DNA of 44,526 nt from an archaeon (GCA_043810865.1 JBDRNS010000005.1:68821-113346); one strand, 5' to 3'. Counted from the first letter of the stretch, positions 33,746 through 44,526 are shown. Numbers and translations: made by a program. The notes: generated by a model from the sequence alone, not told the origin.

Positions 33746-33922
33746 ATGGCTAATGAGAAATATGATGTTTTTAGATATGACGGAAGTAATGTATTGATTG
33801 TTGGAAGAGGAATGAGTTATGAACAAGCAGCTGAACTGACAGATAATTTAAGGGGGCAAGAAGTTGGATTTAGAATTTCACAGTTAAGTAATATTGAGAA
33901 AGATTTAGGAGACAAAAAATAA
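33746..33922 (+). CDS. Small hypothetical protein (58 aa) between rpoB and rpoA
   Basis: MANEKYDVFRYDGSNVLIVGRGMSYEQAAELTDNLRG...; starts 1 nt after the rpoB stop and its TAA overlaps the rpoA ATG. Confidence 0.65.
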   Translation: MANEKYDVFRYDGSNVLIVGRGMSYEQAAELTDNLRGQEVGFRISQLSNIEKDLGDKK

Positions 33923-36900
33923 TGCAAATCATAAAGAAAAAAGTTGATGAACTGAAATTTACTTTGCTTAGTCCTGAGCAGATTAAAAAAATTTCTGCGG
34001 CGAAAATAGTCACGCCTGAACTTTATGATATTGACAGTTATCCTGTCGACGGAGGACTTATGGACTTGCGTTTGGGAGCAATTGATCCCGGAGTGAGATG
34101 CAGAACCTGCGGAGGACGGCTGAAAGAATGTCTCGGGCATCCCGGAAGAATTGAACTGGCAAGGTCTGTAATTCATCTGAAATATGTTCCGTTAATTGAA
34201 ACCGGCTTGAGATGTTTTTGCCATGATTGCGGAAAACTTTTGGTTTCTGAAAAAGACATGGAAAAATTACAGCCGAGCGAGAGAGCGAAGAAAGCGAAAG
34301 ACGCGAAAAAATGTCCGCACTGCAATGCAATTCATGAGAAAGTAAAAGTTGACAAGCCGACAAGTTTCTTTATTGGAAAAAAGAGATTATTTCCGACAGC
34401 AATAAGAGAAATGCTTGTAAAGATTCCCGACGAGGAATTAAGAAAAATCGGTGTGAATCCTGAAACGTGCAGAATTGAATGGGCTGTTTTGACTTTGCTG
34501 CTTGTTCCATCTGTAACAATAAGACCGAGCATCATACTTGAAAGCGGAGAAAGAAGTGAGGATGATTTGACTCACAAACTTTCGGATATCATAAGAGCAA
34601 ACCAACGTCTATGGGAAAATTTGAATGCAGGTGCTCCCGAAGTTATTATTGAGGACTTGTGGGACTTGCTGCAATTCCACGTGACAACTTTTTTTGACAA
34701 TACTGTTTCAAAAATTCCTCCTGCAAGACACAGAAGCGGACAGCCATTGAAAACAATTACCGAGAGAATAAAAGGGAAGGAAGGAAGAATAAGAAAAAAT
34801 CTTGCAGGAAAAAGAGTAAATTATTCCGGAAGAACGGTTATCTCACCTGATCCGTCGATGGAGTTGAATGAAGTTGGAATTCCTTTTGAAATTGCAAGAG
34901 TTGTAACAGTTGCCGAGACAGTTAATGATTTGAATATTGAAAAAATAAAAAAATTAATTCAGAAAGGTGAGGAATATCCCGGAGCAAGTTACATAATCAG
35001 GCCTGACGGCAAAAGAAAAAAAATAACTCCTGAGCTTAAGGAAGAAATAATAAATGAAATTGAGCCGGGCTACCAGATTGAAAGACATTTGCAGGACGGA
35101 GATGTTGTTTTGTTCAACAGACATCCGAGCTTGCATAAAGGAAGCATCATGGCTCACATTGTAAAAGTTTTGCCCGGGAGAACATTCAGATTACATCCCG
35201 GAACAACTTTTCCCTACAACGCTGATTTCGACGGAGATGAGATGAATATTCACTCTCCACAAACAGAAGAAGCAAAAGCAGAAGCCAGAATTTTGCTTGA
35301 TGTAAAAAGAAATTTAATTTCTCCAAAGAACAATACAAACATGCTCGGATTTGATGCAGATGCAATTACAGGAAATTATCTTCTAGGACTTGGTGAATTT
35401 TCAAAGGACTATGCAAATCAACTTATGTATAGGTCAGGAATTGAAAAACCAATGAATAAAAAAACAATTACGGGGACTGAGATTTTCTCGCAGTTTCTTC
35501 CCAAAATAAATTTCTCCAACAGTTCAATAACAATCAGGGACGGGGAAATAACAAAAGGAAAAATAGACAAGACAGCTTTTGGCGAAGAGGACGGGGAACT
35601 GATAAAAGAACTTGACAAAAATCTTGGAGAGGATGAGACAGCAAACATAATAAAGAAAACATTTGATTTGGGAATACATTTCCTTACAGACAGGGGAATA
35701 ACAATTTCCCTCGAGGATTTGAACATAAATCAAAAAGCAATTGATGAAGCAGATGAAATAATAAAAAAAGCAGAGAAAAAAACAGAGGAAACAATCAGAG
35801 CGTATGAAGATGAGGATGCCGAGATAATTCCCGGAAAAACAAAAGAGGAATCAAGAGAGATTAAAATTCTGCAGATTCTTAACGAAGTCAGAACAAAAGT
35901 CGGAGAAATTGTGAAAAAAGAATTTCCCGACGAGAATCCTGTTAATCACATGATTGTTTCAGGTGGAGGAGGAAACATTTCAAACATAACACAAATTGCA
36001 TGCTGCGTCGGACAGCAGGCGCTGTGGGGAAAAAGAATTGACATTGGTTACAAGGAAAGAACACTTTCATTTTTCAAAAAAGGAGAATTATCGCCTGCAT
36101 CAAAAGGTTTTATAAAAAGTCCGTTCATAAAAGGATTGCGCCCTGATGAATTCTTTTTCGGAGCTGTTACAGGAAGGGATTCACTGATGGATACTGCACT
36201 AAGAACTCCGAAATCAGGATATTTATACAGACGTCTTGCTAATGCATTGCAGGATTTGAGAGTAGAATACGACGGAACAATAAGAGACAGCAATAACAGC
36301 TTAATACAATATCAATACGGATATGACGGCTATGATGTTTCAAAACTCCACATGAAAGGAAAACTTCAGCCGGGAGAAGCAATTGGAATTATCACAGCGC
36401 AGTCGTTCGGAGAACCGTCGACGCAAATGGCTTTGAGTGTTTTCCACTTTGCAGGCGTGCAGGAAATGCAGATTACTGCAGGACTTCCACGACTGATAGA
36501 AATTTTTGACGCCAGAAAAAAACCAAGTTCTCCAAAGATGGATATTTATTTAACAAAAGATTACAATAATGAAAGAGATGCAAAAGCATTTGCCGAGAAA
36601 ATAAAAGAAGTTACTATCAGGGAAATTGCTTCTGAGATAAATGTTAATTTCAGCGACAAGACAATTCAGATAAAAACAGACAGGCGGGGATTGAGACATG
36701 CGCACACAACAATCAAGAAAGTTGCCGAGGGCTTGCATGAACTTGGATACAAAATAAGGGAAAAGGAAGATTCAATTATAATAAATGCGAGCGATTTGAA
36801 TTTCAGGGAGATTTACAAGCTGAAAGAAAAAATCAAGAAATCAATTGTCGCGGGCGTGAAGGGTGTGAGCCAGATTTTAATTGTGAAAAAAGACAGGGAT

Positions 36901-37404
36901 TACATTGTTACGACGCTGGGAACAAATCTGAAAAAAATAGTTGAGATGAAAGAAGTCGATACGAACAAGACATTTTCAAATGATTTCCATGAGACGGTTG
37001 AGATTTTTGGAATTGAAGCGGCAAGGAAACTTATAATCGACGAGATAAAAAAAGTTTTGAACACACAGGGTTTGGACATTGACATGAGGCATCTTGAATT
37101 TATTGCGGATGCGATGACAAACACAGGAGTTGTAAAGGGAATAACAAGAATGGGAATTATTGCGCAGAAATCGTCGATACTTGCAAAGGCGACATTCGAG
37201 ACACCTGTAAAACAATTCATAAACGCGTCGATAAAAGGAAGCAAAGACAAGCTCTCAAGCGTTATCGAAAATATAATTCTTAACCAGCCGGTGCCGATAG
37301 GAACAGGACTTCCCGGACTTCTTGTAAAAGTTACAGGTGCATTGACGAAAAAAGAATCGGATAAAAAAGTAGTTAAAGCCAAAATAGTTGAGAAAAACAA
37401 ATAA
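33922..37404 (+). CDS. rpoA: RNA polymerase largest subunit Rpo1, A' and A'' fused
   Basis: CLGHPG, GKRVNYSGR, YNADFDGDEMN, TPKSGYLYRRL (A'), followed directly by PGEAIGIITAQSFGEPSTQM, GLPRLIE, KATFET, PIGTG (A''). Confidence 0.96.
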   Translation: MQIIKKKVDELKFTLLSPEQIKKISAAKIVTPELYDIDSYPVDGGLMDLRLGAIDPGVRCRTCGGRLKECLGHPGRIELARSVIHLKYVPLIETGLRCFCHDCGKLLVSEKDMEKLQPSERAKKAKDAKKCPHCNAIHEKVKVDKPTSFFIGKKRLFPTAIREMLVKIPDEELRKIGVNPETCRIEWAVLTLLLVPSVTIRPSIILESGERSEDDLTHKLSDIIRANQRLWENLNAGAPEVIIEDLWDLLQFHVTTFFDNTVSKIPPARHRSGQPLKTITERIKGKEGRIRKNLAGKRVNYSGRTVISPDPSMELNEVGIPFEIARVVTVAETVNDLNIEKIKKLIQKGEEYPGASYIIRPDGKRKKITPELKEEIINEIEPGYQIERHLQDGDVVLFNRHPSLHKGSIMAHIVKVLPGRTFRLHPGTTFPYNADFDGDEMNIHSPQTEEAKAEARILLDVKRNLISPKNNTNMLGFDADAITGNYLLGLGEFSKDYANQLMYRSGIEKPMNKKTITGTEIFSQFLPKINFSNSSITIRDGEITKGKIDKTAFGEEDGELIKELDKNLGEDETANIIKKTFDLGIHFLTDRGITISLEDLNINQKAIDEADEIIKKAEKKTEETIRAYEDEDAEIIPGKTKEESREIKILQILNEVRTKVGEIVKKEFPDENPVNHMIVSGGGGNISNITQIACCVGQQALWGKRIDIGYKERTLSFFKKGELSPASKGFIKSPFIKGLRPDEFFFGAVTGRDSLMDTALRTPKSGYLYRRLANALQDLRVEYDGTIRDSNNSLIQYQYGYDGYDVSKLHMKGKLQPGEAIGIITAQSFGEPSTQMALSVFHFAGVQEMQITAGLPRLIEIFDARKKPSSPKMDIYLTKDYNNERDAKAFAEKIKEVTIREIASEINVNFSDKTIQIKTDRRGLRHAHTTIKKVAEGLHELGYKIREKEDSIIINASDLNFREIYKLKEKIKKSIVAGVKGVSQILIVKKDRDYIVTTLGTNLKKIVEMKEVDTNKTFSNDFHETVEIFGIEAARKLIIDEIKKVLNTQGLDIDMRHLEFIADAMTNTGVVKGITRMGIIAQKSSILAKATFETPVKQFINASIKGSKDKLSSVIENIILNQPVPIGTGLPGLLVKVTGALTKKESDKKVVKAKIVEKNK

Positions 37405-37927: not shown

Positions 37928-38332
37928 TTAATTTTGGATTTTATTCTCAATAATTCTAATTAAATTGTTTATAATGGTTTTTATTGAGTCCTCATAATTA
38001 GACAGAAATTCTTTCTCGGCTTGTTTGCCATAATAAACAATTCCATGCCTGAGTTTTCTTAAGATGTCTATAGTATTTACAGCATTGCCATTAAATTCTT
38101 TGTAATTTTTAGACAAGTATTGTATTAAGCCAGTATGGCTTAGAGTTTTATATCCGTCAAAATACATTACTGAAGTTATCAATTGGACAATAATCTCATA
38201 ATATTCTTCAATTATTTTATATGATTTATCCCTTGGAAATAAAGGAATTATTTCATTCAACCTGTCTTTTGCCGTATTAAACAAATCTTTAGCCCGTATA
38301 ATATCTTTGCTTATTTTAAATATCTCTTTCAT
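37928..38332 (-). CDS. HEPN-domain protein (partner of the MNT)
   Basis: EEYYEII, DGYKTLSH, LRKLRHGIVYYG; overlaps the MNT gene. Confidence 0.75.
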   Translation of the reverse strand: MKEIFKISKDIIRAKDLFNTAKDRLNEIIPLFPRDKSYKIIEEYYEIIVQLITSVMYFDGYKTLSHTGLIQYLSKNYKEFNGNAVNTIDILRKLRHGIVYYGKQAEKEFLSNYEDSIKTIINNLIRIIENKIQN

Positions 38333-38843
38333 CTATTCCTCCATAGATTATTCGTCCATTTAAAACATTAATTTTAATTGATTTATTTAATTTATTAAGA
38401 TTTTCCACAAAAACAAGATTTATTTTCCTGTTCAATGATTTTTCAAATTTCTTCAGATTTATTTCTTTTTTAACTTTAGATAGTATAATAATGTCTATAT
38501 CACTTGATTCTGTATCTTCCCCTTTTACATAAGAGCCAAAAATCATTATGGATTTAGGATAAAGAAGTTTGGCTATTAATTCTCTTAATTCATAAAGAGA
38601 ATAAAAATTATATGCTTGTTTATAAAATATAAATTTCTCATTTTCTCTGTTTGCAACGAATCCGTCAAATGGCTTTGCTTTTGTTTTAACAATCAGATTA
38701 TTTTTTTCAAGTTCTCTGATATGATTTCTGACAGACGTCGGAGCAAGATTGGTTTTTTTCCCAATTTCTCTTATAAAATGCATATTGGTTGGTTCTATAA
38801 AGAATACTCCAAGAACTTTTAATAAGCTACATTTTTGTATCAT
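38316..38843 (-). CDS. HTH + minimal nucleotidyltransferase (MNT)
   Basis: HFIREIGKKTNLAPTSVRNHI (wHTH); FGSYVKGEDTESSDIDI. Confidence 0.88.
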   Translation of the reverse strand: MIQKCSLLKVLGVFFIEPTNMHFIREIGKKTNLAPTSVRNHIRELEKNNLIVKTKAKPFDGFVANRENEKFIFYKQAYNFYSLYELRELIAKLLYPKSIMIFGSYVKGEDTESSDIDIIILSKVKKEINLKKFEKSLNRKINLVFVENLNKLNKSIKINVLNGRIIYGGIDERDI

Positions 38844-38908
38844 ATGATACATTTATGTTTATATCTCTATATAAATGTTTCTATGGGAAGTTGAGGATTG
38901 TTTAGCAT

Positions 38909-39166: not shown

Positions 39167-40762
39167 TTAAGGTTGGGTTATTGTAAAATTAATTACTTCT
39201 GAACTTCCAACATTTCCCAGTGTATCTACTGCATCAATTTCCAAAGTATGAGCCCCGTTTTGCAAGTTTAAATCGAAAGGAGTATTGCAAACAATTGGCT
39301 GAGGAGTTCCACCATCAATTATAGCACTACAACCACTTGGGTCTAAATTATCATCTAAATCAGCTTCATTATGTTGAACAGTTAACGGGCTATTAGATGA
39401 TTGCCCTTCTGTTGGACTTTGAACTTGAACTGTTGGAGAGTATTCTTTTTCAAAAGATAATGCACTAACTTCATCTGCATTAGTATTTGTATAAACGAAT
39501 CTTAACCAGTCAGCATCTTCAAATATTTCTACAGTTAAATTAAAACCTCTTGAAAGATTCAGAATTTCTCCATTAAAAAGAACATCTTCATTAAGTACTG
39601 TTTGATAATCCTCTGGTAAACTATTAAAAGTATGAACATGAGATGTAGTTCTGCTATCAAAATGCATTTCTTCTAATTCTAAAGGCACAAATTCTTCTGC
39701 AGAATTATGATGTGCTGCTTTAAAGACATACATTCGATTAGTGCTGTCTACACATATGGTAATAGGTAAACGAACTTCTAGAGAATCCCTTTGATAACCT
39801 CCTGAGATTTCATCTTTTAAGAATCTGTGAACAGTATTATTCAAAAGATCTGATACGAGAAAACCTCCTTCAATTTGAACAATTTTATACTGCATACTAA
39901 GAGGCAATGAACCAGCAGGAGTATCCGGAAATAAAGTCCCCAGATTTTCTCCTAAAGGTATGTCTGTTTCAGAAACTTTATCCTGGAGATTTGAATCAGT
40001 TGAAAGAACATAAGGATTTCTAGTAATCTGCCCATTGGATCTAGTTGGAAGCATTACAAAGTAGAATCTCCCATCATTGAATCTCTTAGCATCGACAATT
40101 CCTATTAAATTATTATCCTGAGGGTACTCAGCCCTTTGATAACTTCCAGTAATATCAGGAGAAAACTTTAAAGGTTGACCAGATACATTAGTAAAAAAGA
40201 GTATGTCTGTTGTTCCGGAAATAGTATTTAAAATAAGTCCTTGAGGAACTGAACCGTCTGCTGAATCAGCATATAGTGTTGTTAAGAATTTACCAATATC
40301 TTCCAAACCAAATGAAACAATTTGTTCTATCGGAGATGTTCCTGCAATAACCTCCTCAATTGTTCCAGTATATCTATTTAAGGTAGGGAAAATATCATAA
40401 TTAAAACTTTGAGGAGCGTTATCTTGAAGGGAAGTTCCTGAAGTAAGTGTAGGTCTTGTTGCAAATACTTGCAAGTTTATATCAGTTGAGGATAAAGAAT
40501 ATATCTGGACTCCTCCTCGCTGTTGCTCAACTTTATGAGAAGACAAAGCTTCAGGCATGTAATTGGTTGCTAAGGTCAATGGTACTGAAGGATTTCTCAA
40601 ACTATACCCACCACTCACTTGTTCCTCCTGTGCTGGCGGAGGGGTAATTATTTCTGTATCCCTACTAAGACATCCTCCAAATACTAACCCTGCACCCAAA
40701 AGTGCTGCAAGTCCAAGTGCCTTTAAACCCCTATAACTTGATTTTCTTCCAGAGTATTCCAT
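39167..40762 (-). CDS. Putative surface lipoprotein with C-terminal Ig-like domain
   Basis: LGLAALLGAGLVFGGC lipobox-like signal; beta-rich body; C-terminal PTVQVQSP...NGAHTLEIDAVDTLGN. Confidence 0.7.
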   Translation of the reverse strand: MEYSGRKSSYRGLKALGLAALLGAGLVFGGCLSRDTEIITPPPAQEEQVSGGYSLRNPSVPLTLATNYMPEALSSHKVEQQRGGVQIYSLSSTDINLQVFATRPTLTSGTSLQDNAPQSFNYDIFPTLNRYTGTIEEVIAGTSPIEQIVSFGLEDIGKFLTTLYADSADGSVPQGLILNTISGTTDILFFTNVSGQPLKFSPDITGSYQRAEYPQDNNLIGIVDAKRFNDGRFYFVMLPTRSNGQITRNPYVLSTDSNLQDKVSETDIPLGENLGTLFPDTPAGSLPLSMQYKIVQIEGGFLVSDLLNNTVHRFLKDEISGGYQRDSLEVRLPITICVDSTNRMYVFKAAHHNSAEEFVPLELEEMHFDSRTTSHVHTFNSLPEDYQTVLNEDVLFNGEILNLSRGFNLTVEIFEDADWLRFVYTNTNADEVSALSFEKEYSPTVQVQSPTEGQSSNSPLTVQHNEADLDDNLDPSGCSAIIDGGTPQPIVCNTPFDLNLQNGAHTLEIDAVDTLGNVGSSEVINFTITQP

Positions 40763-40840: not shown

Positions 40841-41089
40841 TTAATTGTAAATGTTTTTTCTATGCCCTATTCTTAAAACTATTATCTTGTTTGCAGAAAC
40901 TAAAACATCCACTATTGCCCTGTAATCAGCAATTCTCAATCTCCATAATTTCTCCCCCTGCAATCTTTTTAGAAATCGGAACGGATTTTCCCTTATTGAA
41001 TAAATTTTGTTTAAAATAATATCAGCATCTCTTTTTTGCAATTTCTTAATAAATTCCTTAGAACTTTTTGAGAGTTCAACAGAATACAT
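40841..41089 (-). CDS. RelE/ParE-family toxin
   Basis: MYSVELSK, KRLQGEKLWRLRIADYRAI, IGHRKNIY. Confidence 0.9.
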   Translation of the reverse strand: MYSVELSKSSKEFIKKLQKRDADIILNKIYSIRENPFRFLKRLQGEKLWRLRIADYRAIVDVLVSANKIIVLRIGHRKNIYN

Positions 41090-41090
41090 T

Positions 41091-41327
41091 TTATCTAAGT
41101 TTCACACCCAATTCTCTTGCTACATCTTCAATGGGATAAATTTTTCCTTTCCTTACTTCCTCTAATGCTATTTTTATGTCTCTTATTTCTTCTTCACTAA
41201 GTGTCTCTTCTTCGATATTATCAATAAGATTATTCAAAAGTTCGCTATAAGATTGCCTTTCAAATTGTTTCAATGCTTTCAACCGTTCAAGAGTTCCAAT
41301 ATCCACCTGGATTGTTGTTTTTTTCAT
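41091..41327 (-). CDS. Antitoxin (RHH-like N-terminus, acidic C-terminus)
   Basis: KTTIQV..TLERLK...SYSELLNNLI; IKIALEEVRKGK..PIEDVARELG; directly upstream of RelE. Confidence 0.82.
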   Translation of the reverse strand: MKKTTIQVDIGTLERLKALKQFERQSYSELLNNLIDNIEEETLSEEEIRDIKIALEEVRKGKIYPIEDVARELGVKLR

Positions 41328-41363
41328 TATATAACTACTTATAATTGCTATATAAATCTTTCT

Positions 41364-41456
41364 TCAACACCAAGAATATGAATTATCTTTTGAACACATT
41401 TCTGTCTGCATATTTTCAATTTTTTGTTGGAGGTTTTGGTTTTGTGTTTGGAGATT
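41364..41456 (-). repeat. Orphan copy R3 of the adhesin 3' end
   Basis: Encodes NLQTQNQNLQQKIENMQTEMCSKDNSYSWC* versus DLQIQNQNLQKQIENMQTEMCSKGEWSWC* at 43304 onward. Confidence 0.9.
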
Positions 41457-41493
41457 CAGAAAAGTATTTAAATTCAAAGGTACAGATATTTGT

Positions 41494-41736
41494 ATGAATA
41501 AAATAGGAATTAATATTGTTATAGAAAGGGAAAAAGTAAACTCAGAAGTTATTTTTACAGCTTCTAGCCCCGACATAAATGTTTTTGCGGAAGGAAAAAG
41601 CATAGATGAAGTGAAAGAGAAATTTGTAGAAGGGGTTAAAAACCATTTTGAAGCGTTTCCGGAGGAAAGAATATCCTTGATAAAAGAAAATAATTCTGAA
41701 TTTGAAATGCCTATGATCCAAAAGATTTTCTTATAA
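41494..41736 (+). CDS. HicB-like antitoxin
   Basis: FTASSPDINVFAEGKSIDEVKEKFVEGV; own TATA at about 41466. Confidence 0.75.
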   Translation: MNKIGINIVIEREKVNSEVIFTASSPDINVFAEGKSIDEVKEKFVEGVKNHFEAFPEERISLIKENNSEFEMPMIQKIFL

Positions 41737-41940
41737 TTAATAAAATTCTTCTTTTGATATTCCTGTTAATCTGGATATTTTATTAAAAACTCCAATTGTT
41801 GTTAAAGGCAAGACAACTGTGATATGTATTTTTCCATTTGATAAAGAAACATGACTGCCTTTCCTACTTTTTATTTCATAACCGTGCTGCATCAATACTT
41901 TAATTATATTTTCACCCTTTATTACTTTTGGTGTTTTCAT
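41737..41940 (-). CDS. HicA-family toxin
   Basis: IIKVLMQHGY...RKGSHV, TVVLP, GVFNKI...GISKEEF. Confidence 0.85.
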   Translation of the reverse strand: MKTPKVIKGENIIKVLMQHGYEIKSRKGSHVSLSNGKIHITVVLPLTTIGVFNKISRLTGISKEEFY

Positions 41941-41985
41941 AATATACTAATAAAGAATCAATATTTAAAATGTTTTTGATTAAAA

Positions 41986-42039
41986 TATTTTTCAACACCA
42001 ACTATAAGAATTATCTTTTGTGCAAAGTTCCTGTTTTAG
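41986..42039 (-). repeat. Orphan copy R2 of the adhesin 3' end
   Basis: Encodes LKQELCTKDNSYSWC*; 41986-42033 is identical over 48 bp to 42593-42640. Confidence 0.92.
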
Positions 42040-42044
42040 AAAAT

Positions 42045-42293
42045 TCATTGTTTCTTTTTATGGTATAAATCCAAGATATAAACTATATTTTCATCTTTTT
42101 TGTAAGCATAAGACAATCTAAAAGGTTTAATATAAAGTTCTCTTGTGCCTTTCCTGACATTTCTCATCGGTTTTCCAACATCCGGGTTTTCGGAGATTTT
42201 CTTTATTTGTTTTTTTATTTTTGTTCTCAATAAATTATCTTTTAGTCGGGAGAATATCTCTGTAAATTTTTTATCAAATCGGATTTCTACCAT
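42045..42293 (-). CDS. RelE/ParE-family toxin
   Basis: NPDVGKPMR, TRELYIKPFRLSY, LYHKKKQ. Confidence 0.88.
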   Translation of the reverse strand: MVEIRFDKKFTEIFSRLKDNLLRTKIKKQIKKISENPDVGKPMRNVRKGTRELYIKPFRLSYAYKKDENIVYILDLYHKKKQ

Positions 42294-42556
42294 TTTTCCA
42301 TTTCTTCGAAAAGGTTTTCAGAATCAATGCTTATAAATTCCCCTTTCTCTATTCTTCCCCATGCTTCCTCAGTTCTTCTTGCAAATTCCAAGTCGTCTTT
42401 TATATTTTCAGTTAAGTTTTCAACTTTTTTAAGAATAATTCTGTCATCATCCCTGATTACTATTAAATTATCTCCTTCTTTAAGATTTTTCCTTAGATTT
42501 GCAGGAATTACTATCTGTCCTTTTGAGCTCATTTTTGTTATATCTAAACTAACCAT
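42287..42556 (-). CDS. AbrB/MazE-family antitoxin
   Basis: TKMSSKGQIVIPANLR..LKEGD; overlaps the toxin start. Confidence 0.9.
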   Translation of the reverse strand: MVSLDITKMSSKGQIVIPANLRKNLKEGDNLIVIRDDDRIILKKVENLTENIKDDLEFARRTEEAWGRIEKGEFISIDSENLFEEMEKW

Positions 42557-42557
42557 G

Positions 42558-42573
42558 GTAAGACGTATCTTAC
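42558..42573. promoter_or_regulatory. Palindromic operator candidate for the AbrB-type antitoxin
   Basis: GTAAGA-CGTA-TCTTAC between the TATA (tttataaa) and the ATG. Confidence 0.6.
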
Positions 42574-42592
42574 TAGATTTATAAACTTTTCT

Positions 42593-42646
42593 TATTTTTC
42601 AACACCAACTATAAGAATTATCTTTTGTGCAAAGTTCCTGCTTTAA
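42593..42646 (-). repeat. Orphan copy R1 of the adhesin 3' end
   Basis: Encodes LKQELCTKDNSYSWC*. Confidence 0.92.
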
Positions 42647-42658
42647 TGTTAGAAGTAA

Positions 42659-43054
42659 TCAAACTAAATCTTTGGTTCTTACTAAATTGATTCCTTTCAA
42701 ATCTCTAAAATCTTTATCTTCACTCCAAACAAAACAATTTTCTTTAATACTTAATGCTAATATTTCTACATCTTTTTCATCTATTTTTCCAATAATTTCA
42801 TCTGCATCTTTTATTTTGTCTTTGTAATATTTTTTAGAATAAATTTTTATTGGTAATAAAAATAATGCTTCTTTAATCTCCTCTTCATTAACCAAAGATT
42901 TTTTAGAGATTAATGAGATATATTTTCTAACTTCATCCATTGTATATTCCGAAGATATAAAATTAAATCTGTGGTCAAATAGGATATTTCTACTAATTCC
43001 TCCTATTAAAGCGGAAATAATCGGAGTTGCATCCACTGCAATTTTTATTTTCAT
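42659..43054 (-). CDS. PIN-domain (VapC-like) toxin
   Basis: VDATPIISALI, TMDEV, DEKDVEILAL, WSEDKDF. Confidence 0.88.
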   Translation of the reverse strand: MKIKIAVDATPIISALIGGISRNILFDHRFNFISSEYTMDEVRKYISLISKKSLVNEEEIKEALFLLPIKIYSKKYYKDKIKDADEIIGKIDEKDVEILALSIKENCFVWSEDKDFRDLKGINLVRTKDLV

Positions 43055-43269
43055 TATCTCTTCTCAAAATCATCTAATATTTCTTTAGGACTAATTTTGT
43101 TATTTTTTAATCCTAATGCAACCTTATTACTAATTTGAAGAAATCTCTGCTTTTTTAGTTCAAGTATCTTATCTCTGACAGCTTCTTCTATAAATTCAGA
43201 ATTTCCATTAAATCCGAGTTCAGATATAATCTTGTTTAGTTCTTCAGGCAATTTAATCTTTGTTTCCAT
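43054..43269 (-). CDS. Ribbon-helix-helix antitoxin
   Basis: IKLPEEL...GF..NSEFIEEAVRDKI; coupled to the PIN start. Confidence 0.82.
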   Translation of the reverse strand: METKIKLPEELNKIISELGFNGNSEFIEEAVRDKILELKKQRFLQISNKVALGLKNNKISPKEILDDFEKR

Positions 43270-43303
43270 AATTAAATCAGTTAGAAATAATATTTAAAAC
43301 TTT

Positions 43304-44526
43304 CTAACACCAACTCCATTCGCCTTTAGAACACATTTCTGTCTGCATGTTTTCAATTTGCTTCTGGAGATTTTGATTTTGGATTTGCAAATCTTCAATC
43401 ATGGATTGTTGTTCTTGGATTGCTTGTAAAGTTATCCATTGAATATCTCCATAATTTAATTTAAGATATCCATCCTCTCCCCTCACAACTAATTCAGGAA
43501 ATATTTTTTGGACATCCTGTGCTATTAATCCTCTCTGCATACCTGTTGCATTAATAAATTTAAATTTTTTTATTTCTAATTTATTAATTTTATCTAAAAT
43601 ATTTTCAAAATTGCCGCTAGTTATATTTTCTTTTAATCTTACATCTGATGCACAAGAACCCAAACTACCTCCGTTATATACTAAACAACCCCAGCTTTTA
43701 GCTACGCTTCCAAGATTTTTCGCATTATCTGTATAAGGGGTTATATCATTTGCGCTAAATTGAAAAGTATTGGTAGTATCAGACATCATAATAAAATTGG
43801 TGCCATCATTATAAAATGTCCATTGGATACCCTCTTTATCTTCAAGACTAAGAGCAGGATTTGTAGAACCACTAATTTCTAATAATGCGTCTGACGATCC
43901 GGAGGTTAATTCAGGCGAAGTCGTCCCGATGCCGACTTCTCCTCCTCCCAGAATAGTCATGAAATTTGTATTACCATCAGAATCTTGAAATTGATATGCA
44001 GTTTCTAAAGAACCCAAGTCAGAGGGTGCTCCTTGTGTGTTTACTTTTCCTGCTCTAAATACAACGGCAGGGACGGTGTCTGTAGGGTCAACTGCTCCAA
44101 TATACCCTCTTAATCCCATTCCTGTACCTGTACCTGCGTCTGAATATCCTGTTATAATTCCGCCACCAACAAGGGCACTCCAACTACCAATAGATACGAG
44201 AACCTCATTATCTACTTCTGTAAAAGTATGACTTACGTCATTATCACTTAGGGTAATTTGGGGGTTGCTTCCCGCACTTGTAAATACATCTAATTGACTT
44301 CTCGGCGAAGTCGTCCCGATGCCGACGTTTCCGCCATCCCTCATTAAAATTAAGGGTCTTGCAGAACTTTCAGTTTGTATCAAAGCATATTCTTTATTTG
44401 TTCCTGCTGTTCCAGACAACCTTAATTGTGCTGTTGCATTTCCTGTATAAATTCCATAAGCATTTGTATTTGTAAAAACATCAAGAGGAACATTTGGCGA
44501 AGCCGTGCCGATGCCGACTCTGTCAT
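43304..44526 (-). CDS. Tail-fibre-like adhesin with VGIGT repeats and C-terminal peptidase S74 (intramolecular chaperone) domain, partial (5' end outside window)
   Basis: Frame open to the right edge; three VGIGTxSP motifs; SDVRLKENI, GLIAQDVQKIFPELV, LNYGDI, AIQEQQ coiled coil, EMCSKGEWSWC*. Confidence 0.88.
   Translation of the reverse strand, partial: DRVGIGTASPNVPLDVFTNTNAYGIYTGNATAQLRLSGTAGTNKEYALIQTESSARPLILMRDGGNVGIGTTSPRSQLDVFTSAGSNPQITLSDNDVSHTFTEVDNEVLVSIGSWSALVGGGIITGYSDAGTGTGMGLRGYIGAVDPTDTVPAVVFRAGKVNTQGAPSDLGSLETAYQFQDSDGNTNFMTILGGGEVGIGTTSPELTSGSSDALLEISGSTNPALSLEDKEGIQWTFYNDGTNFIMMSDTTNTFQFSANDITPYTDNAKNLGSVAKSWGCLVYNGGSLGSCASDVRLKENITSGNFENILDKINKLEIKKFKFINATGMQRGLIAQDVQKIFPELVVRGEDGYLKLNYGDIQWITLQAIQEQQSMIEDLQIQNQNLQKQIENMQTEMCSKGEWSWC

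Follow-up and report, generated by a model that had tools for sequence, protein, structure and literature searches.

The accretion of integrated elements in tandem at gene 3′ ends is a known pattern, which covers the duplication of attachment (att) sites of the tRNA type as well as cis-mobilizable elements without an integrase. Arrays of another kind are found at Rhs/CdiA loci. According to PMC3967940, the main gene is followed there by co-oriented fragments of its 3′ part, which are truncated at their 5′ ends and linked to downstream genes, the orphan type of one strain is the main end in another, and the homology between main gene and orphans permits recombination. In integrons and in clusters of attC sites lacking integron integrases (CALINs), repeats alternate with small cassettes rich in toxin-antitoxin (TA) systems, often without an integrase; PMC9668308 gives TA systems as 10.5% of annotated archaeal cassette proteins and most archaeal integrons as CALINs. 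Here, we describe a locus of a tiny archaeon from groundwater that shares features with each of these systems. It lies in a stretch of 44,526 nucleotides (GCA_043810865.1 JBDRNS010000005.1:68821-113346), hereafter called the window, in which the 3′ end of a gene for an S74-chaperone fibre protein ("adhesin") is followed by four predicted TA modules separated by orphan copies of this gene end, the "tails".

Based on comparisons with related genomes, we propose with a probability of about 0.58 that the locus is a lineage-specific accretion hot spot, at which recombination at the gene end would add units of tail plus TA module and addiction would block their loss.

In layout, the locus most resembles the orphan arrays of Rhs/CdiA genes and tandem islets flanked by att sites at gene 3′ ends, and in cargo it comes nearest to chromosomal integrons and CALINs. 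The three traits of Rhs/CdiA loci listed above have counterparts here. Unlike in those systems, the fragment comprises 15-51 codons of a conserved chaperone tail in place of a variable toxin domain, the linked genes form autonomous TA pairs (PIN, ParE, HicA, PemK) with their own promoters, some of them on the opposite strand, and not cognate immunity genes, and the setting is an S74 fibre gene in an archaeal host. The initial annotation had drawn the comparison with CdiA/Rhs loci, which thus stands for the layout but not for the content of the fragments. The tandem att pattern is matched by the succession of complete gene end, element, partial 3′ end and element, with the gene regenerated at each insertion, by direct repeats which equal the 3′ end of the target gene and flank the elements, and by a tRNA-Ala version with TA cargo in a relative (locus L024). 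It differs in that the arrays described here have no integrase nearby and no att core conserved between genomes, that the elements measure only 0.5-0.8 kb, and that the repeats differ mostly at synonymous positions. The arrangement of repeat, cargo and repeat with small TA-rich cassettes is shared with integrons and CALINs, but the repeats are relics of coding sequence without an attC hairpin. In addition, the cassettes contain two genes with their own promoters and occur in both orientations, in contrast to the mostly promoterless and co-oriented cassettes of a single open reading frame (ORF), and they are anchored at the end of a protein gene and not at attI, with no adjoining recombinase of the IntI type. 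The literature (full text) yielded no description of tail-delimited TA arrays or of S74 genes in these archaea; the attC tables of PMC9668308 may list some tRNA-linked repeats.

Results

Organization of the array in the window

The source genome comprises 575,717 bases in 21 contigs with a G+C content of 35%, and the window represents the end of contig C5. Read on the minus strand, the order is fibre gene end, TA1, R1, TA2, R2, TA3, R3 and TA4 (Table 1), i.e. a main gene followed by co-oriented and 5′-truncated copies of its own 3′ part. The fibre gene matches Peptidase_S74 (PF13884) at residues 293-346 with 55.8 bits against a Pfam cut-off of 22, and its product ends in ...EMCSKGEWSWC, with the stop codon at 43304-43306. 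At the start of the S74 domain, the translation of the window shows the motif SDVRLKENI, which has a presumed role in the domain. S74 chaperone parts are cleaved off after folding. A second S74 gene is located on contig C10 and has a different C-terminus.

The initial annotation had reported an array of four TA modules split by orphan adhesin ends, and this array is indeed present. The motif C-x-K...W-C-stop occurs at exactly four sites in the whole genome, all of them in the array (six-frame search by regular expression), and no further R copies were found in the genome by blastn, so that a chance origin of the four tail copies is excluded. R1 and R2 both end in LKQELCTKDNSYSWC and are 98% identical over 53 nt (42593-42645 and 41986-42038); they differ by one mismatch and include the 48 identical base pairs noticed earlier as a continuous run. 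R3 shares 83% identity over 69 nt with the end of the live gene (41387-41455 and 43324-43392), and over its final 30 nt the identity with R1 and R2 amounts to 90%. The spacing between a cassette and the next orphan, described initially as about 5-40 nt, was measured as 0-40 nt.

Each cassette consists of two genes and carries a TATA-like box about 25-30 nt before the first ATG. The genes are small and adjacent, and the toxins match known TA families at or above the curated cut-offs, by which the cassettes are predicted to be type II TA modules. Homologues of the TA1 antitoxin adjoin PIN_2 genes in L074, L076, L083 and L109. Two labels of the initial annotation were not retained: the designation of the TA1 antitoxin as RHH rests on matches below threshold (Table 1), and the ORF named HicB is located on the plus strand and has neither a Pfam family above cut-off nor a BLASTP match to Pfam-confirmed HicB proteins. 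In the source genome as a whole, the families ParE, PIN, PIN_2 and HicA match eight loci, four of which lie inside these 2.5 kb, corresponding to half of the loci in 0.4% of the genome sequence.

Two observations concern individual cassettes. The HicA-like gene and the 80-aa ORF converge tail to tail, an arrangement of toxin and partner that is unusual for type II modules, and this region (41494-41940) is kept as one blastn unit (query 1481-1927) in 12 of the loci fetched from relatives. Just before the start of the AbrB/MazE gene of TA2 (window 42557-42600), a palindrome GTAAGAT(n4-5)ATCTTAC is present, which recurs in nearly all TA2 homologues (L034-L053) and is probably, as judged from its sequence and position, an autoregulatory operator.

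Table 1. Coordinates of the features discussed, counted from the first nucleotide of the window
Feature	Position	Strand	Remarks
S74-chaperone fibre ("adhesin") gene, 3′ part	43304..44524	-	406-aa open frame, truncated where the contig ends
Tail R0, last ~29 codons of the fibre gene	43304-43392, incl. stop	-	
TA1 putative antitoxin, 71 aa	43054..43269	-	RHH-like by sub-threshold matches: RHH_6 E 0.011, RHH_1 E 0.033
TA1 toxin, PIN_2 nuclease domain	42659..43054	-	PF10130, 84.6 bits
Orphan tail R1, ~19 codons and stop	42599..42658, stop 42599-42601	-	...LKQELCTKDNSYSWC, stop; without start codon
TA2 antitoxin, AbrB/MazE fold	42287..42556	-	PF04014, 40.4 bits
TA2 toxin, ParE/RelE	42045..42293	-	PF05016, 35 bits
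Orphan tail R2	41992..42047, stop 41992-41994	-	MNFLKQELCTKDNSYSWC, stop; 98% identical to R1 over 53 nt
TA3 HicA-like toxin, borderline	41737..41940	-	PF07927, 27.0 bits at cut-off 27; 26.3 bits in a second run, below cut-off
80-aa ORF, presumed HicA partner	41494..41736	+	convergent with HicA; no family
Orphan tail R3, 29 codons and stop	41364..41455	-	...QNLQQKIENMQTEMCSKDNSYSWC, stop; tail-profile match E 7.4e-13
TA4 antitoxin, DUF7557	41091..41327	-	PF24434, 31.1 bits
TA4 toxin, ParE/RelE	40841..41089	-	PF05016, 34.5 bits
531-aa lipoprotein-like neighbour (starts MEYSG...)	39167..40762	-	distal array boundary, synteny anchor; no Pfam family
Nucleotidyltransferase-like ORF	38316-38852	-	synteny anchor; translation resembles L074 5926-6462
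HEPN-like ORF	37928-38332	-	synteny anchor; translation resembles L074 6446-6847
RNA polymerase A′ gene, archaeal type	33922-37404		open-frame reading of the window

Support for the assembly

Runs that contain a stretch of the window are represented by low-depth Logan contigs from groundwater, the best share being 0.32. Exact Logan contigs of other runs span the junctions gene end/TA1 (42849-43394), TA1/R1/TA2 (42570-42720) and R3/TA4 (41217-41412); the R2 junction is spanned by none of the contigs among the matches listed. No reliable alternative joint was detected in the parts covered by the Logan contigs; a single joint from 41391 to 44304 has a short side of 25 letters and lies in a repeat. 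That reads of several paralogous loci were collapsed onto one contig, as had been considered initially, is hardly credible. S74 genes do coincide with contig breaks (at the end of C5, at either end of C10 and at the end of G270:C33) and the R2 junction is unbridged, but the contigs spanning the other three junctions are error-free and one of them stems from another study, and the same architecture was assembled independently in eight genomes and in one metagenome contig.

Recurrence of arrays in the family

The comparison set consisted of 401 genomes of the same family, one per species. A degenerate DNA pattern for the tail was tried on these genomes and dropped, as it admitted TGG as a "stop" and gaps out of frame; it was replaced by a profile of 35 positions (A1), for which matches were taken at E<=1e-4. 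The profile gave 44 matches in 25 of the 401 genomes: 24 full genes, two frameshifted gene ends, three copies truncated where a contig stops, and 15 orphans. Eight genomes contain the orphans (G000, G270, G121, G108, G344, G202, G256 and G246), and these counts are minima because short orphans such as R1 and R2 are missed by the profile. In none of the 45 genomes from other families in the order did the profile find a match. A metagenome scan with the S74 C-terminus returned 79 loci with at most 61% identity (31-47% for most of them), which are mostly generic S74 genes and among which only L109, a contig from a groundwater metagenome, was informative. Among the matches listed in a scan by the generic pattern VKAIQEQQ, none of 27 S74 loci, nearly all from Bacteroidota, had more than one tail. 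The array is a recurrent feature that, within the genomes searched, is restricted to the family.

The individual arrays differ in content. In L109, a fibre gene ending in ...CLKDNSYSWC is followed by a PemK pair, an orphan, a ParE pair, a second orphan and an antitoxin of the TA1 type, behind which a nucleotidyltransferase (NTase)/HEPN pair and a homologue of the MEYSG protein are located. G270 (L074) contains six orphan tails of the type ...MKQSLCNLGA[ST]EWC at distances of about 0.8 kb and then the NTase/HEPN pair; the cargo between its tails comprises a DUF433/DUF5615 pair twice, a PIN_2 pair and a TA1 homologue. A full gene of 821 aa, a DUF4258/DUF2283 pair, an orphan, a further pair, a second orphan and ParE form the array of G202 (L075). 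In G121 (L076), a TA1 homologue is bordered by a degenerate tail on one side and by an intact orphan tail on the other. The gene end in G013:C65 (L013) is of the ...KDNLYSWC type, and the TA4 homologue behind it has a degenerate tail copy on each side, with a GTPase-like gene as distal neighbour after the last tail. Further arrays were mapped in G344, G246, G108 and G256. As the NTase/HEPN pair or a large secreted or lipoprotein-like gene flanks the arrays of the window, G270, G202 and L109, these arrays fill one syntenic slot with different contents and order. Variable TA cargo behind a conserved tail and stop codon in many genomes, as anticipated in the initial annotation, was accordingly found in eight of the 401 family genomes and in L109, at syntenic loci and in varied order.

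A Pfam TA family above cut-off or a TA1 homologue by blastn is present in 13 of the 18 segments between tails, and the other five comprise one NYN nuclease gene and four small unassigned gene pairs; no housekeeping gene occurs in any of the 18. Cargo on the opposite strand was observed for two of five G270 cassettes and for the NYN gene of G344. Along L074 (G270:C2, 522-4734), three DNA types of tail follow each other in the order C, B, A, B, A, C; type A tails are followed by a plus-strand cassette and share a TATA box after the stop codon, whereas type B tails are followed by a minus-strand cassette.

All orphans share the orientation of the gene and retain only its last 15-51 codons, and the gap between the preceding cassette and the orphan is 0-70 nt. 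These dimensions bear on the possibility that several full-length fibre genes, each with a TA module, once stood in tandem and that deletions left their 3′ ends only, as might be expected in small, deletion-biased genomes which trim non-essential DNA. Two tail-bearing S74 genes do occur 3.7 kb apart in L098, one of them short, and G227:C5 also has two. Such a decay of paralogues is nevertheless improbable: the open frames of the orphans encode 21-64 aa (except for R3, with 133 aa running on into unrelated sequence), compared with at least 156 aa for the genes, and there are no intermediates. No orphan retains any part of the S74 domain, the 3′ ends alone remain, each directly behind a cassette, and R1 and R2 have the same boundary. 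Simple decay had been raised as an objection at the outset, but no relative carries full-length genes at each orphan position.

In L086 (G270:C33, 3420-3495) and L013 (G013:C65, 1215-1340), the live fibre gene joins its tail only via a frameshift shortly upstream of the coiled coil, which could be a sequencing error, decay or programmed slippage.

Divergence of the tail copies

The tail copies were compared by their proportions of synonymous (pS) and non-synonymous (pN) differences. R0 and R3 differ with a pS of 0.80 and a pN of 0.07, and similar relations were obtained in G270 for o3 versus o4 (0.57 and 0.06), in G344 (0.43 and 0.05) and in G256 (0.30 and 0.02). The other tail pairs of G270 range from 0 to 0.52 for pS and from 0.02 to 0.15 for pN, including o1-o3 without a synonymous difference (pS 0, pN 0.07); with o1-o3 set aside, pS in the G270 pairs spans 0.28-0.57. 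For R1 versus R3, pS is 0.54 and pN 0.21, counting one serine switch between AGT and TCT, and R1 and R2 are distinguished by a single synonymous base. As the copies differ mostly at synonymous sites, they diverged as parts of expressed genes and were imported or displaced. On this substitution pattern, the tail copies are not recent in-place duplicates that decay neutrally, with R1/R2 as the exception. The orphan type of the window, ...KDNSYSWC, is a live gene end in L109, G301, G178, G227 and G013:C65.

A pN well below pS would also be expected if the orphans were functional small genes for Cys-loop peptides under selection themselves, and R2 and the G202 orphan start with ATG (MNF...) and comprise 18-19 codons. 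We regard this as very improbable, since R1 has no start codon, the first orphan of L109 has exchanged Cys for Tyr and the second has lost its stop codon, one G344 copy is without the last Cys, the copies of G121 and G013 contain deletions, and the 5′ ends are heterogeneous.

Search for attC sites and recombinases

The initial annotation had pointed to integron cassette arrays as a parallel. As candidate attC sites, R1, R2, R3 and two tails of G270 were folded on both strands. In these 10 folds, the z-scores ranged from 0.06 to 1.69 with one value of -1.33, and 20 to 193 of 200 shuffled sequences folded as well as the tail. The tail repeats are not attC sites, and the parallel with integrons fails in this respect.

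A different possibility is site-specific integration in trans, in which the cassettes, as satellites without an integrase comparable to cis-mobilizable elements, would enter in tandem at the 3′ end of the gene through a viral or plasmid tyrosine integrase or through the Xer enzyme of the host, with duplication of an att core at each insertion. The layout of complete end, element and partial end does resemble tandem islands at gene 3′ ends, and the cassette boundaries are discrete. Furthermore, the TA4 homologues in L014, L016, L018, L019, L020, L024 and L025 are flanked by another repeat, which in L024 follows a tRNA-Ala gene and ends in a copy of the 3′ end of this gene, and the source genome of the window encodes one tyrosine recombinase (C20:100620-101108), the only match to PF00589, although not on the array contig. 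Against integration in trans, no integrase was found on the array contigs of G000, G270, G202, G344, G246 and G108 and no tyrosine recombinase anywhere in the assemblies of G270 and G202 (genomes 78-89% complete), in line with the earlier statement that no recombinase is visible in the window, which holds for the five other array contigs checked as well. A serine recombinase above cut-off is likewise missing from the source genome. The tails of different genomes have no DNA core in common beyond TGG-TGY-stop, the orphans vary in length, and the many synonymous differences between tails are unlike a conserved binding site. With no shared core, synonymous divergence and no local recombinase, a sequence-specific enzyme acting on the tails seems unlikely, and we consider integration in trans an unlikely, though not far-fetched, origin of the arrays.

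The L024 array (G199:C8, 818-2645) consists of the tRNA-Ala gene (818-907), a GNAT-like ORF, a RelE-type pair and the TA4 homologue. Its separators are repeats of 35-115 nt which end in a copy of the tRNA 3′ end plus about 7 nt of downstream sequence, and two hairpins (z -1.2 to -2.6) are present in the longer of these repeats. The TA4 homologues at the other six loci named above have flanks of the same kind. The L024 array has the appearance of elements accreted in tandem at a tRNA gene, or else of the attC-like sites reported for archaeal CALINs.

Cassettes as separate units

The 2.6-kb array matches 299 of the 401 family genomes by blastn, with 66-78% identity for most of the matches listed. 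These matches fall into four blocks, each of which ends at the last stop codon of a cassette and begins some 40 nt ahead of the first start codon, with the TATA-like box directly after the stop codon of the preceding tail. Although their tail types differ, the window, G270, L109 and G121 all have the junction between tail stop and TA1 promoter, and the junction of an R copy with TA4 is found again in G013:C65. TA1 is the first module of the window array and the last in G270 and L109; this shift in position, together with the recurrent TA1 junction, fits a displacement of tails and cassettes away from the gene.

Discussion

Proposed mechanism

We suggest that the conserved 3′ end of the S74 gene, comprising the coiled coil and the Cys-loop tail, serves as a recombination anchor for small autonomous TA cassettes, with a cassette unit that would extend from its own promoter to the stop codon. 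DNA of a relative containing the 3′ region of the fibre gene and a downstream cassette may recombine via the homology in the gene, with the far join falling within the resident tail, immediately ahead of it, or in an orphan tail that the donor brings along. The incoming tail would then become the live gene end, and the old end would be left as a 5′-truncated orphan before its old cassette. New units would be added on the gene side of the array, and the original neighbour would follow the orphan farthest from the gene. Once a cassette lies between two tail copies, these copies might act as homology arms for a transfer by double crossover; alternatively, the cassette between the tails could be excised as a circle and re-inserted in a Campbell-type event. 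Use of the copies as homology arms would account for the near-identical R1 and R2 around TA2.

Loss of a resident TA module is expected to be harmful, whereby replacement would be disfavoured, additive products would survive and the array would grow in the manner of a ratchet. Addiction may also shield the short spacers from larger deletions. For integron arrays, the idea of a stabilising role of TA modules is cited in PMC9668308. We infer the direction of growth, the general homologous or illegitimate nature of the recombination and the ratchet by addiction. The earlier proposal that recombination repeatedly adds TA modules at the gene end is supported in outline by these comparisons, the type of recombination being left aside.

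Several points weigh against an accretion hot spot at the gene end. Most full-length tail-bearing genes are not followed by an array but by genes for larger secreted proteins or by the NTase/HEPN pair. Most of the 60 fetched loci with TA1-TA4 homologues represent unrelated contexts without tail repeats, and a fuzzy search of these loci for the R1 core gave two matches, both in L071, versus three for the reversed control, so that the cassettes are not accompanied by the R sequence itself; other tail types flank three more of the 60 loci (L056, L057 and L058). From these comparisons, TA modules of the types found here are common and mobile-looking units, and the tail repeat belongs to the type of locus and not to the cassettes. 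R1 and R2 begin at almost the same tail coordinate, which is not predicted by two independent illegitimate joins and calls for a second mechanism, either a Campbell-type event or conversion. With only about 12 nt in common, R0 and R1 cannot at present recombine homologously. The cassettes of G270 occur in both orientations while the tail types alternate as A/B/A/B, and the model gives no account of this. The low-depth contigs gave no sign of a recombination event, a circle or a presence/absence polymorphism, and the genomes compared represent one strain per species.

As a more tentative generalization, which we hold for possible but for less than an even chance, the fibre-gene tail may be, in this family of ultra-small archaea, a recombinase-independent platform for cassettes, with portable homology arms that allow general recombination to move TA modules between genomes and addiction that forces addition; the tRNA-Ala version would then follow the same principle at a different anchor.

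Neighbourhood of the fibre gene

The MEYSG protein beyond the array has a homologous N-terminus in L109 (8833-10926). The NTase and HEPN assignments derive from a Pfam run on homologues only, which gave NTP_transf_2 in L074, L109 and L083 and HEPN in L083. The pair of NTase and HEPN-like genes recurs beside tail-bearing S74 genes across genera (window 37928-38852; L074 5926-6847; L109 7800-8749; L097, L101 and L103). A secreted protein with the N-terminal motif ...ADV[IV]S[LV]NSGG... is the second recurrent neighbour of such genes, again across genera. These recurrent neighbours suggest, at the level of sequence, a conserved gene neighbourhood around the surface fibre.

Within the S74 gene of the window, the stretch coding for the motif VGIGTTSP is repeated (43914-43945, 44278-44335 and 44470-44518), and this repeat region reaches a summed depth of about 70-120 in contigs of other runs, compared with about 2-10 elsewhere. 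The motif is probably common to many fibre genes of the community, which would account for the contig breaks at the S74 genes listed above.

Significance

Archaea of the DPANN type have tiny genomes with few mobile-element enzymes and are widely thought to depend on contact with other cells, and their acquisition of accessory genes is poorly understood. The locus suggests a route of acquisition without a dedicated recombinase, in which the end of a gene would be the landing pad and addiction modules would lock in the arrivals. In practical terms, it is precisely at these repeats that assemblies of such genomes are interrupted. If the proposal is true, it would explain the clustering of TA modules at this locus, and integrons and the orphan arrays of Rhs/CdiA loci would be joined by a third kind of cassette array delimited by repeats. 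Growing as a ratchet, the array would keep a record of successive exchanges of the fibre-gene end, and its orphan tails would provide a readable history of allele exchange at a gene whose fibre is probably involved in host contact.

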